This document shows, in pieces, positions 15,324 to 45,702 of a stretch of 64,000 nucleotides of DNA. A model generated the notes under the pieces. It was not told where the DNA came from and ran no database searches. It saw only the letters and a list, made by a program, of their open reading frames with translations. The stretch lies in the NCBI RefSeq assembly GCF_003334305.1, contig NZ_QOWS01000011.1; one strand, 5' to 3'. The DNA comes from Escherichia coli. Lineage in GTDB: Bacteria > Pseudomonadota > Gammaproteobacteria > Enterobacterales > Enterobacteriaceae. A program made the translations under genes and the position numbers. The stretch's first letter is position 1, and every line of letters begins with the position of its first letter.

Positions 15324-15350
15324 TTATCGGCCTGAATTGCGCAAAGTTTA
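15324..15350 (-). promoter_or_regulatory. sigma28 (FliA) class 3 promoter of fliDST
   Basis: Minus-strand reading TAAACTTT-N11-GCCGATAA, a near-perfect match to the TAAAGTTT-N11-GCCGATAA consensus. Confidence 0.75.
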
Positions 15351-15442: not shown

Positions 15443-15469
15443 TAAAGGTTGTTTTACGACAGACGATAA
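15443..15469 (+). promoter_or_regulatory. sigma28 (FliA) class 3 promoter of fliC
   Basis: TAAAGGTT-N11-GACGATAA about 75 nt upstream of the fliC ATG. Confidence 0.8.
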
Positions 15470-23385: not shown

Positions 23386-23843
23386 TTATTTTCCTCGTCA
23401 TGTTGCAATGAAAATTTGCGGTGAAAAATGTTAAGGCGGCGGAGTATACCATAAGCTTTGCTAAAAATAGCAGTGGTTGTTTTTTGAGCGTGGTATCGGC
23501 AGTGCTATAAAATACGTTAATATAATGACCAATAAATATTTTTATCATGAATGTTTTTTGCCCGTATTGTTCGGGTTAATTAATGTTACATATTCAGCGG
23601 GATGATTTTCATTTTTGCTGAATAAAGTCAATTTTTGTCACATTTCATCGTAGGGCTTACTGTGAAACGATCCGGTAAGCCGTTGGTGACGGGCGTGACC
23701 ATAACTGTGGACAATCGAATTTACAAAAACGAGAGAAAAATCGAATACCCACCATTTTTAACGTTTCAAAGTTGCAATAAAAACCGCTAATATACGAATG
23801 ACTAACTATCAGTAGCGTTATCCCTATTTCTGGAGATATTCCT

Positions 23844-27085: not shown

Positions 27086-27161
<76 letters not shown>

Positions 27162-27215
27162 GTTTAAAAGACATCGGCGTCAAGCGGATGTCTGGCTGAA
27201 AGGCCTGAAGAATTT

Positions 27216-27289
27216 GGCGCGTTAACAAAGCGGTTATGTAGCGGATTGCAAATCCGTCTAGTCCGGTTCGACTCCGGAACGCGCCTCCA
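27216..27289 (+). tRNA. cysT: tRNA-Cys (anticodon GCA)
   Basis: GGCGCGTTAACAAAGCGGTTATGTAGCGGATTGCAAATCCGTC...CCTCCA. Confidence 0.95.
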
Positions 27290-27301
27290 CTTTCTTCCCG
27301 A

Positions 27302-27388
27302 GCCCGGATGGTGGAATCGGTAGACACAAGGGATTTAAAATCCCTCGGCGTTCGCGCTGTGCGGGTTCAAGTCCCGCTCCGGGTACCA
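27302..27388 (+). tRNA. leuZ: tRNA-Leu (anticodon UAA), long variable arm
   Basis: GCCCGGATGGTGGAATCGGTAGACACAAGGGATTTAAAATCCCTCGGCGTTCGCGCTGTGCGGGTTCAAGTCCCGCTCCGGGTACCA. Confidence 0.95.
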
Positions 27389-35660: not shown

Positions 35661-39013
<3,353 letters not shown>

Positions 39014-39019
39014 GAGCGG

Positions 39020-39448
39020 TTAATCTCCCGTAAGTGGAACTAACAGCACATCGACCTCACTTGAGGCAATAACTCTTTTCGCCGAGCAGGATGCTCGCGA
39101 AAAGAAACTGTGATTGTGATTACCGCAAATCACCAAATCGAAATGATGTTTGTGACATACTTCCAGAATATGTTCGCTTAACTCACCGTAGGCAATAAAC
39201 GTCTTGTCAACGGGATACCCCGCATCCTGAATTAACTTATCAAGAAAGCTTTGCGTTTCTTCTTGCATCACGCTGCGTAAATCTTCAAGCATCGGCGCGG
39301 CTAATTGATTGTACATTTCCGGGTCGGAAGCGAGAGTAATTAAACTGATGTGTCCCTTTACTGGCCTGGCGATAGATACCGCTTTTGCCAGCAGTTGCTG
39401 ACTTTCCGGTGTAACCGCAACAGCGACAAGAATATTGCTATAGCTCAT
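39020..39448 (-). CDS. uspC: universal stress protein UspC (142 aa)
   Basis: UspA-family fold; convergent with otsA, stop codons 6 bp apart. Confidence 0.85.
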   Translation of the reverse strand: MSYSNILVAVAVTPESQQLLAKAVSIARPVKGHISLITLASDPEMYNQLAAPMLEDLRSVMQEETQSFLDKLIQDAGYPVDKTFIAYGELSEHILEVCHKHHFDLVICGNHNHSFFSRASCSAKRVIASSEVDVLLVPLTGD

Positions 39449-39950
39449 AACCTGTTCCTTATTCTGTGAACTTCAGGTGACATTAAAGCTTTACTCCTAA
39501 TGGAGAAACGACGCAATCCCAACTCGGTCAAACAGGTAAATATTAGTCTGATTATTAGTAAAGACAATTAATCAATCACTCCAGGTGATCATATAATTTC
39601 AAATGTAATTATAAGAAAATAGTGTACTGATTCTCCGCATTAAACAAGTGGTTAATATATGTAAAACATTTCATTAACATTAAGTTGATTGTTGCCTTTC
39701 TTTGTATTTAATTAGTTTGTTGTGCGGTAAGTGTCTGTTTAAAAATAGCTTATCTGGTATTGCATGAAAGTGATTATTTATAGCAGATGATTATTTACGG
39801 TGAGTTATTTTAACTGTGCGCAACATCCCATTTCGATTATTCCTGTTTCATTTTTGCTTGCTAGCGTAGCGAAAAACTTTTTAACAGATTGAAATACACC
39901 CAAAACAAAAGTATGACTTATACATTTATGTTAAGTAATTGAGTGTTTTG

Positions 39951-39966
39951 TGTGATCTGCATCACA
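39951..39966. promoter_or_regulatory. CRP binding site in the flhDC promoter region
   Basis: Perfect TGTGATCTGCATCACA about 270 bp upstream of the flhD ATG, consistent with a class I CRP site upstream of a long 5' UTR. Confidence 0.65.
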
Positions 39967-40227
39967 CATTATTGAAAATCGCAGCCCCCCTCCGTTGTAT
40001 GTGCGTGTAGTGACGAGTACAGTTGCGTCGATTTAGGAAAAATCTTAGATAAGTGTAAAGACCCATTTCTATTTGTAAGGACATATTAAACCAAAAAGGT
40101 GGTTCTGCTTATTGCAGCTTATCGCAACTATTCTAATGCTAATTATTTTTTACCGGGGCTTCCCGGCGACATCACGGGGTGCGGTGAAACCGCATAAAAA
40201 TAAAGTTGGTTATTCTGGGTGGGAATA

Positions 40228-40578
40228 ATGCATACCTCCGAGTTGCTGAAACACATTTATGACATCAACTTGTCATATTTACTACTTGCACAGCGTTTGA
40301 TTGTTCAGGACAAAGCGTCCGCTATGTTTCGTCTCGGCATAAATGAAGAAATGGCGACAACGTTAGCGGCACTGACTCTTCCGCAAATGGTTAAGCTGGC
40401 AGAAACCAATCAACTGGTTTGTCACTTCCGTTTTGACAGCCACCAGACGATTACTCAGTTGACGCAAGATTCCCGCGTTGACGATCTCCAGCAAATTCAT
40501 ACCGGCATCATGCTCTCAACACGCTTGCTGAATGATGTTAATCAGCCTGAAGAAGCGCTGCGCAAGAAAAGGGCCTGA
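40228..40578 (+). CDS. flhD: flagellar master regulator FlhD (116 aa from ATG at 40228; longest ORF starts 40219)
   Basis: Translation [37 protein letters not shown]... Confidence 0.9.
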
Positions 40579-40580
40579 TC

Positions 40581-41159
40581 ATGAGTGAAAAAAGCATTGT
40601 TCAGGAAGCGCGGGATATTCAGCTGGCAATGGAATTGATCACCCTGGGCGCTCGTTTGCAGATGCTGGAAAGCGAAACACAGTTAAGTCGCGGACGCCTG
40701 ATAAAACTTTATAAAGAACTGCGCGGAAGCCCACCGCCGAAAGGCATGCTGCCATTCTCAACCGACTGGTTTATGACCTGGGAACAAAACGTTCATGCTT
40801 CGATGTTCTGTAATGCATGGCAGTTTTTACTGAAAACCGGTTTGTGTAATGGCGTCGATGCGGTGATCAAAGCCTACCGTTTATACCTTGAACAGTGCCC
40901 ACAAGCAGAAGAAGGACCACTGCTGGCATTAACCCGTGCCTGGACATTGGTGCGGTTTGTTGAAAGTGGATTACTGCAACTTTCCAGCTGCAACTGCTGC
41001 GGCGGCAATTTTATTACCCACGCTCACCAGCCTGTTGGCAGCTTTGCCTGCAGCTTATGTCAACCGCCATCCCGGGCAGTAAAAAGACGTAAACTTTCCC
41101 AGAATCCTGCCGATATTATCCCACAACTGCTGGATGAACAGAGAGTACAGGCTGTTTAA
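40581..41159 (+). CDS. flhC: flagellar master regulator FlhC (192 aa)
   Basis: Zn-binding cysteines (…CNCCGGNF…, …CSLCQPP…) in ORF translation. Confidence 0.9.
41090..41116 (+). promoter_or_regulatory. sigma28 promoter inside the 3' end of flhC (motAB-cheAW promoter; MotR origin)
   Basis: TAAACTTT-N11-GCCGATAT, about 170 nt upstream of the motA start and within flhC codons. Confidence 0.7.
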
Positions 41160-41218
41160 CTGATACGGTGAGGCGCAACATTCCAGCAGCGGTAACGACG
41201 TACCGCTGCTTTTTTTTG
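41124..41218 (+). ncRNA. motR: candidate MotR sRNA (motA 5' UTR-derived, sigma28-dependent)
   Basis: Predicted TSS just downstream of the sigma28 -10 at 41109-41116; 3' end at the strong terminator 41187-41218; exact 5' end is inferred. Confidence 0.4.
41187..41218 (+). terminator. rho-independent terminator between flhC and motA
   Basis: GCAGCGGTA-ACGACG-TACCGCTGC followed by T8. Confidence 0.8.
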
Positions 41219-41285
41219 CCCCAATCGCGCGTTAACGCCTGACGACTGAACATCCTGTCATGGTCAACAGTGGAAGGATGATGTC

Positions 41286-42169
41286 GTGCTTATCTTATTA
41301 GGTTACCTGGTTGTTCTCGGTACAGTTTTCGGCGGTTATTTGATGACCGGTGGAAGCCTTGGAGCACTCTATCAACCCGCTGAACTGGTGATTATTGCCG
41401 GTGCAGGGATTGGGTCGTTTATCGTCGGCAATAATGGCAAAGCGATTAAAGGCACGCTGAAGGCGCTGCCGTTGCTGTTTCGTCGCTCCAAATACACCAA
41501 AGCAATGTATATGGATCTGCTGGCTCTGCTTTATCGGTTGATGGCGAAATCGCGGCAGATGGGGATGTTTTCGCTGGAACGTGATATTGAAAATCCCCGT
41601 GAGAGCGAGATCTTCGCCAGCTACCCACGCATCCTCGCGGATAGCGTCATGCTTGATTTTATCGTCGATTATCTGCGTCTGATTATCAGCGGTCATATGA
41701 ACACCTTCGAAATCGAAGCCCTGATGGATGAAGAGATTGAGACGCACGAAAGCGAGGCAGAAGTCCCGGCGAACAGTCTGGCGCTGGTCGGGGACTCACT
41801 TCCGGCGTTTGGTATTGTCGCGGCTGTAATGGGGGTCGTTCACGCGTTAGGTTCAGCCGATCGTCCTGCCGCCGAGCTGGGTGCGCTTATCGCACATGCG
41901 ATGGTGGGGACTTTCCTCGGCATTTTATTGGCTTACGGATTTATTTCCCCATTAGCGAGTGTTTTACGTCAGAAAAGCGCCGAAACCAGCAAAATGATGC
42001 AGTGCGTCAAAGTCACTCTGCTTTCTAATCTGAACGGTTACGCACCGCCTATCGCCGTTGAGTTTGGTCGCAAAACGCTCTATTCCAGCGAACGTCCGTC
42101 GTTTATTGAACTGGAAGAGCATGTGCGTGCGGTGAAAAATCCGCAACAACAGACGACAACCGAGGAAGC

Positions 42170-42173
<4 letters not shown>
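41286..42173 (+). CDS. motA: flagellar stator protein MotA (295 aa, GTG start)
   Basis: Translation [31 protein letters not shown]...; 4 nt overlap with motB. Confidence 0.9.
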
Positions 42174-45065
<2,892 letters not shown>

Positions 45066-45675: not shown

Positions 45676-45702
45676 TAAAGTTTCCCCCCTCCTTGCCGAT
45701 AA
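45676..45702 (+). promoter_or_regulatory. sigma28 promoter of tar-tap-cheRBYZ
   Basis: TAAAGTTT-N11-GCCGATAA, a perfect consensus match, about 30 nt upstream of the tar ATG. Confidence 0.85.

Follow-up and report, generated by a model that had tools for sequence, protein, structure and literature searches.

A 95-nt sequence at the flhC-motA junction of Escherichia coli, almost certainly the small RNA MotR, and a candidate antiterminator within it

Introduction

MotR is an Hfq-binding small RNA of about 95 nt, sigma-28-dependent and derived from motA's 5' UTR (Melamed et al. 2023, eLife 12:RP87151, PMC10578931). The promoter of MotR lies within the flhC coding sequence and is shared with motAB-cheAW, the ~95-nt band is both fliA-dependent and Hfq-enriched, and read-through from motR into motAB-cheAW has been reported (PMC10578931). 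MotR pairs within the coding sequences of fliC and of rpsJ, in the S10 operon, by means of a seed located around nt 46-48, and raises the expression of S10 and flagellin (fliC), the number of flagella, and the level at which middle and late flagellar genes are expressed. Its targets are supported by Hfq co-immunoprecipitation, by RIL-seq chimeras with fliC and rpsJ, and by footprinting, and the activation of reporters is abolished in a seed mutant. Strains carrying the chromosomal motR-M1 allele are less motile and make fewer flagella, the reverse of what overexpression brings about. The increase in S10 has been proposed, with NusB, to promote antitermination, also at the motR terminator, and MotR*, a mutant obtained by chance, has been found more abundant than MotR (all in PMC10578931). 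Most of the published MotR phenotypes come from overexpression.

The same promoter had been described in earlier work. The FliA ChIP-seq site "(flhC)motAB-cheAW" has a fold-above-threshold (FAT) score of 101, second only to that of fliC (110), and RNA-seq data show that motA expression drops from 302 to 1 upon deletion of fliA, while flhC remains at 107 (Fitzgerald et al. 2014, PLoS Genet). It is the most conserved FliA promoter, and constrains the evolution of FlhC (Fitzgerald et al. 2017, bioRxiv 10.1101/188474). We have analysed the corresponding locus in a stretch of 64,000 nucleotides of E. coli (contig NZ_QOWS01000011.1), referred to as the window, starting from a previous annotation made by inspection of the letters alone, the sequence-only reading. 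The locus is not a new one: it has been published and studied by experiment, and the reference genome carries its annotation. Comparative details and a hypothesis on how its terminator may be bypassed are the only, and modest, additions made here.

Results

The sequence between flhC and motA

The genes flhD, flhC, motA and motB follow one another in the window in the order of the flhDC-motAB-cheAW region, which has been found in 5377 of the 5426 complete E. coli genomes (identity at least 95% in all records, and at least 97% in those sampled). The flhC coding sequence, assigned from the list of open reading frames and from the annotation of E. coli genomes, spans positions 40581-41159 of the + strand, and has 192 codons. 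Its final 70 nt hold a sigma-28 promoter and the first 37 nt of a 95-nt segment (41123-41217, + strand) which is almost certainly MotR itself, the product of the known and annotated E. coli gene motR. The segment is identical, at 95 of 95 nt and as a unique match, to the T7 template for MotR that Melamed et al. 2023 give among their oligonucleotides, and to the ncRNA motR (b4828) annotated in MG1655 at NC_000913.3 1977208-1977302. The motR cloning primer SM001, 5'-phosphorylated and designed from +1, begins at 41123, and the downstream cloning primer corresponds to 41270-41289. The published +1 and 3' end fall at 41123 and 41217, exactly 95 nt apart when both are counted. The sequence-only reading had placed these ends at 41123-41126 and 41215-41220, and had predicted that the motA 5' UTR gives rise to a short RNA of about 95 nt; both expectations agree with the published RNA. 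The same reading called the locus MotR-like, which is correct for the architecture, but an understatement for a sequence identical to MotR. Nothing was found that contradicts the identification. No Rfam 15 model matches at the gathering score, and only noise appears up to an E value of 10; the release apparently has no MotR model.

Transcripts reading through the terminator carry the 95-nt segment as the 5' leader of the motAB-cheAW mRNA, and include the rest of the motA 5' UTR (41218-41285, + strand), found in read-through transcripts only. The motA coding sequence (41286-42173, + strand) is a 295-aa ORF whose product shares 99.7% identity with the E. coli MotA query, and is annotated as motA in E. 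coli genomes; first gene of motAB-cheAW, it is served by the same promoter, and is FliA-dependent. An ORF of 45 aa on the minus strand (41116-41253), which overlaps the terminator, was treated as spurious.

Since motR, its promoter, and the whole stretch from the flhD ATG to the motA start are identical to K-12, the strain from which the window derives would be expected to express MotR as K-12 does. Differences are found on both sides of this stretch. Upstream of flhD, a gap of 780 bp (39449-40228) extends from a 142-aa ORF of the minus strand (39020-39448), which we take to be uspC, and leaves no room for an insertion sequence. In MG1655, IS1H is located upstream of flhD, and the antisense RNA AsflhD is annotated across the flhD start. 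While flhDC and motR are identical to MG1655, 17 substitutions are found in motA-motB; these, and the lack of IS1, indicate that the strain differs from MG1655. Elsewhere the window features a three-tRNA gene cluster (27086-27385, + strand) and a full-length match to the sRNA MicL (59677-59984, + strand, 381.9 bits).

The sigma-28 promoter inside flhC

The -35 element (TAAACTTT, 41090-41097, + strand) is made of the flhC codons (cg)T AAA CTT T(cc), the -10 element (GCCGATAT, 41109-41116, + strand) encodes Ala177-Asp178-Ile, and a spacer of 11 nt separates the two. The promoter has two mismatches to the sigma-28 consensus TAAAGTTT-N11-GCCGATAA, in agreement with the sequence-only reading, which described a near-consensus site with an N11 spacer. 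Its location inside flhC had also been correctly recognized; less precise is the reference to the last codons, as the promoter corresponds to codons 170-179 out of 192. The 28-nt motif and the one at the FliA ChIP-seq site "(flhC)motAB-cheAW" (Fitzgerald et al. 2014) are identical.

Six sigma-28 sites with at most three mismatches occur in the window, against 0.47 expected, and this number is reached in none of 100 shuffles. Apart from the flhC site, four of them have been published as FliA sites, associated with tar (45676-45702, + strand), fliC (15443-15469, + strand), fliD (15324-15350, minus strand) and otsA (37858-37884, minus strand). The tar site is a perfect consensus, the otsA site is weak and intragenic. 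The fliD site reads GCCGATAA in the window and ACCGATAA in MG1655, and is thus one base nearer to the consensus. The start of the tar promoter is overlapped, on the minus strand, by a full-length match to the Rfam sRNA C0465 (45609-45686). The remaining sigma-28-like site (23493-23519, minus strand; TAACGTAT-N11-GCCGATAC) has three mismatches, is absent from the FliA table of Fitzgerald et al. 2014, and may be a chance match. A scan of the interval 39800-43200 for sigma-70 promoters gave a lower number of sites than shuffled sequences do, and none close to the element on the + strand; hence there is no sign of an alternative promoter.

A terminator apparently stringent for flhDC and leaky for sigma-28 transcripts

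A hairpin of sequence AGCAGCGGTA-ACGACG-TACCGCTGCT is found at 41185-41210 (+ strand), and is supported by the consensus scan, the fold energy and covariation. The stem has 10 pairs, 6 of which G-C, the loop 6 nt, and the energy calculated by RNAfold is -16.7 kcal/mol. A T8 tract follows (41210-41217, + strand), the first T of which can pair with A41185, and provides the U-tail and the 3' end of MotR. Hairpin and T8 are the first-listed terminator-like site in the interval 39800-43200. The sequence-only reading had the structure right, and in the right place between flhC and motA, but its limits (41187-41218) need to be shifted by 1-2 nt at each end. The hairpin dominates the fold of the 94-95-nt RNA. 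The RNA as a whole is not unusually stable (z = -1.59), so that overall stability is no evidence, and only the terminator stands out in this respect. When 61 distinct homologues are aligned, no variation is seen in the lower stem (AGCAGCG/CGCTGCT), and a T6-T9 tract is present in all. In contrast, the upper four pairs covary: 29 cells are changed at both sides, against 10.3 +/- 2.5 in shuffled alignments, none of which, out of 500, scored as high, and the signal collapses in slid registers.

According to the sequence-only reading, transcripts coming from flhDC would enter motAB-cheAW. Published RNA-seq speaks against this, because the persistence of flhC (107) and the collapse of motA (1) in the fliA deletion indicate that nearly all flhDC transcripts stop at the terminator. 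The data suggest a steady-state read-through of about 1% or less. Should sigma-28 transcripts be terminated with the same efficiency, their promoter would have to fire at about 100 times the motA level, far above fliC. What published expression data imply is thus a terminator close to absolute for flhDC transcripts and leaky for sigma-28 transcripts, and termination seems to depend on context.

A natural motR allele lacking the terminator was encountered in the clinical E. coli isolate 20Y000092 (NZ_CP138217.1). A deletion of 11 bp (TGCTTTTTTTT), aligned to 41207-41217, removes the foot of the 3' arm and the entire U-tract, and this allele should read through constitutively.

Distribution in Enterobacterales

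Loci for comparison were retrieved by a degenerate pattern for the FlhC motif DWFMTWEQN, encoded about 400 nt upstream of the element, in one genome per species. The procedure does not select on MotR, and yielded at least 120 Enterobacterales loci; Salmonella is not among the matches listed, and the taxonomic distribution of promoter and terminator given below is that of a sample. Among the matches listed, the sequence TAAACTTT-N11-GCCGATA is located exactly 70 nt ahead of where the flhC stop codon ends in nearly all loci reaching the end of flhC, and third codon positions are 0.97-1.00 conserved in both promoter elements; in most neighbouring flhC codons, beyond the promoter and the first MotR codons, the corresponding values are 0.35-0.87. 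For codons GTA AAA .. CGT AAA CTT and GCC GAT no synonymous alternative is found in the 66+42 loci among the matches listed. These data reproduce the published conclusion of a highly conserved promoter by which FlhC coding is constrained. Synonymous sites are frozen in all the Enterobacterales compared also in codons GTA AAA AGA CGT (41079-41090), just upstream of the -35 element, which suggests that the functional promoter may extend further upstream as an A-rich, UP-like segment.

The terminator has a narrower distribution. A hairpin of the GCAGCG type, followed by T6-T9 and with its end some 91-97 nt away from the predicted start, is found at 71 of 115 loci, all from Enterobacteriaceae or Erwiniaceae (among the matches listed). 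The former include Escherichia, Citrobacter, Enterobacter, Kosakonia, Atlantibacter, Buttiauxella, Kluyvera and others, the latter Pantoea, Erwinia, Mixta and Winslowiella. A terminator of the MotR type is absent, among the matches listed, from Yersinia, Serratia, Rahnella, Providencia, Proteus, Morganella, Xenorhabdus, Photorhabdus, Dickeya, Pectobacterium, Edwardsiella and Hafnia. As the promoter is order-wide, and the terminator, hence the discrete sRNA, resides in two families, the promoter is plausibly older than the sRNA. Different hairpins, with energies of -16 to -22 kcal/mol and poor U-tracts, were noticed in the motA leaders of Pectobacterium versatile and Yersinia thracica.

The flhC codons CAA CTG CTG GAT GAA CAG, which correspond to MotR nt 2-19 (41124-41141), are single codons in all 66 terminator-bearing loci, and are strongly, though less strictly, fixed in the 42 loci lacking the terminator. 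Because of the latter, some constraint acting at the nucleic acid level on the 5' end of the transcript would predate the sRNA. The seed region is loosely conserved between genera, and a GTG or GTGG core is found in most of the 61 homologues. In the window the seed core is the GTG at MotR nt 46-48 (41168-41170, + strand), changed into CAC in the M1 mutation (primers SM467/468 and M1 gBlock). At nt 49 (41171) the window and K-12 have GGTGAGG, while three other E. coli strains examined, and most Enterobacteriaceae, have GGTGTGG. The K-12-type MotR may pair slightly differently from the common allele.

A candidate antiterminator helix

MotR nt 5-12 (CTGCTGGA, RNA CUGCUGGA; 41127-41134, + strand), which encode Leu-Leu-Asp of FlhC, are exactly reverse-complementary to nt 60-67 (TCCAGCAG, RNA UCCAGCAG; 41182-41189, + strand). 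The latter cover the first five bases (nt 63-67) of the 5' arm of the terminator. The two segments are thus candidate 5' and 3' strands of an antiterminator. In nascent prefixes of 66-86 nt their helix belongs to the lowest-energy (MFE) fold, and it gives way to the terminator at 88 nt, when the 3' arm is complete; in the full-length fold the terminator is preferred by 3.8 kcal/mol. Nucleotides 5-12 are invariant in the 61 homologues, and the helix is found in the prefix MFE of all 61, despite very different spacers. The helix reaches nine pairs in 22 homologues and ten in 16-17, such as those from Pantoea and Mixta. The non-coding residues C61 and C62, located outside of the terminator stem, are invariant, T60 is conserved in at least 90% of the homologues. 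The TGC at nt 6-8 (41128-41130, + strand) is changed into GAG in MotR* (primers SM109/SM110), and this change abolishes the helix in silico.

The helix is invariant across the alignment, and hence exhibits no covariation. In addition, 10.6% of shuffled upstream sequences sequester the terminator arm at least as much, a non-significant result, so that the antiterminator is no more than a hypothesis. Prefix folds show another helix, between nt 13-19 and nt 30-36, which was dropped as it does not look conserved, with a mismatch at nt 31 in Pantoea noticed by eye. No description of the nt 5-12/60-67 helix was found in the MotR paper, and full-text literature searches brought up no RNA antiterminator at motA.

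Discussion

FliA dependence, Hfq binding, targets and phenotypes of MotR are taken from the literature; the identity and anatomy of the element, the conservation of the promoter and the covariation of the terminator come from the present analysis. Put together, they make it very probable that RNA polymerase carrying FliA (sigma-28) initiates at 41123, within flhC. A fraction of the transcripts ends at the hairpin 41185-41210 and the U-tail extending to 41217, giving rise to the 95-nt Hfq-binding MotR, and the remaining ones extend into the motAB-cheAW mRNA. MotR then acts in trans, as the published work indicates. The chromosomal M1 mutation lies within the motA leader as well, and might therefore also influence motAB-cheAW in cis.

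The notion that promoter-like and terminator-like strings have come together by chance, and that no transcript is made, can be practically dismissed. It may only appeal to the false positives which consensus scans are known to yield, and is at odds with the number of sigma-28 sites, unmatched by shuffled sequences, with the identity to a mapped FliA site and to an annotated RNA, with the conservation of synonymous sites across an order, and with the covariation of the stem. It is also very improbable that the element is a mere terminator of the flhDC operon, placed beside the motA promoter, and the 95-nt RNA an inert by-product lacking any role in trans. The terminator does stop flhDC transcripts, the restriction of the terminator to two families within an order-wide distribution of the promoter implies that motA expression needs no sRNA, and the loose conservation of the seed between genera goes in the same direction. 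Yet, the recovery of MotR with Hfq, the RIL-seq chimeras, the footprints, the seed-dependent activation of reporters, and the motR-M1 phenotypes, opposite to those of overexpression, have already largely refuted the hypothesis.

More deserving of attention is the possibility that the element is primarily an attenuator acting in cis, whose main job is to set the amount of sigma-28 transcription entering motAB-cheAW. We regard it as possible, though we do not favour it. According to this hypothesis, nt 5-12 would pair with nt 60-67 before the 3' arm of the terminator exists, keep the 5' arm engaged, and allow read-through; in transcripts coming from flhDC nt 5-12 would be translated, or engaged elsewhere, and termination would be almost complete. 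MotR would be the terminated product, and a role in trans is compatible with this origin. The exact complementarity of 8 nt covering part of the terminator arm, the persistence of the helix in nascent prefixes until the full 3' arm is made, its occurrence in the folds of all homologues and its extension in many of them all speak in favour of the hypothesis. So do the constancy of the non-coding TCC (nt 60-62) outside the stem, the lack of variation of the lower stem when the upper one covaries, and the run of six single codons at the 5' end in terminator-bearing lineages. The MotR* RNA, predicted to lose the helix, is reported to be more abundant, and the contrast between flhC and motA in the fliA deletion, set against the motA level of 302 driven by sigma-28, suggests that termination depends on context.

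Other data speak against the hypothesis. The helix is invariant and hence devoid of covariation, about one in ten shuffled upstream sequences sequesters the arm as well or better, and the terminator prevails in the full-length fold. Codons CAA CTG CTG are strongly conserved also in the absence of the terminator, so that part of the conservation at the 5' end must have another cause. A strain in which flhC had been replaced by thyA is still motile when provided with FlhC (bioRxiv 10.1101/188474), and some read-through may thus take place without the 5' strand. RNA stability could equally account for the abundance of MotR*, and the authors of the MotR paper propose antitermination mediated by S10 and NusB instead. 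The more specific proposal, that MotR has at its invariant 5' end (nt 5-12) a built-in antiterminator which pairs co-transcriptionally with nt 60-67, must accordingly be presented as doubtful. Translation of the flhC tail, or S10/NusB, are just candidates for the signal which would choose between the alternative folds. If real, the helix would explain how one and the same terminator stops about 99% of flhDC transcripts and lets sigma-28 transcripts pass, why variation across two families spares the lower stem and the TCC beside it, and why the chance mutant MotR* accumulates to a higher level.

What is added to the published picture may be summarized in few points. The promoter is order-wide, and the terminator creating the sRNA is confined, among the matches listed, to Enterobacteriaceae and Erwiniaceae. 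Termination is asymmetric, as published expression data imply. The conserved complementarity between the 5' end and the terminator arm offers a candidate reason for the asymmetry which is simple, and based on RNA. Should this be correct, a single terminator would work both as the end of an operon and as a tunable switch between sRNA and mRNA in the flagellar cascade.

The closest relative of the element is K-12 MotR (motR, b4828), with which it shares the RNA, the promoter, the position, with the start inside flhC and the end in the motA 5' UTR, and the terminator. The element itself exhibits no differences; the two loci diverge in the substitutions found in motA-motB, and in the IS1 missing upstream of flhD in the window. 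The intragenic FliA promoter described by Fitzgerald et al. in 2014 and 2017 has an identical 28-nt motif, but is treated in those papers as an mRNA promoter, and the word "terminator" never occurs in the 2017 preprint (bioRxiv 10.1101/188474). The sRNAs UhpU, FliX and FlgO have in common with MotR the sigma factor, the binding to Hfq, the origin from UTRs and the regulon. However, FliX and FlgO arise by processing of 3' UTRs, a promoter within uhpT belongs to UhpU itself, and among the four only MotR owes its origin to premature termination in a 5' leader. In this respect the MotR leader is reminiscent of classical attenuators, in which an intrinsic terminator likewise resides in the leader, and an upstream segment is able to pair with its 5' arm; covariation, which would support this pairing, is absent in the MotR leader, and the likeness to attenuators would be one of resemblance only.
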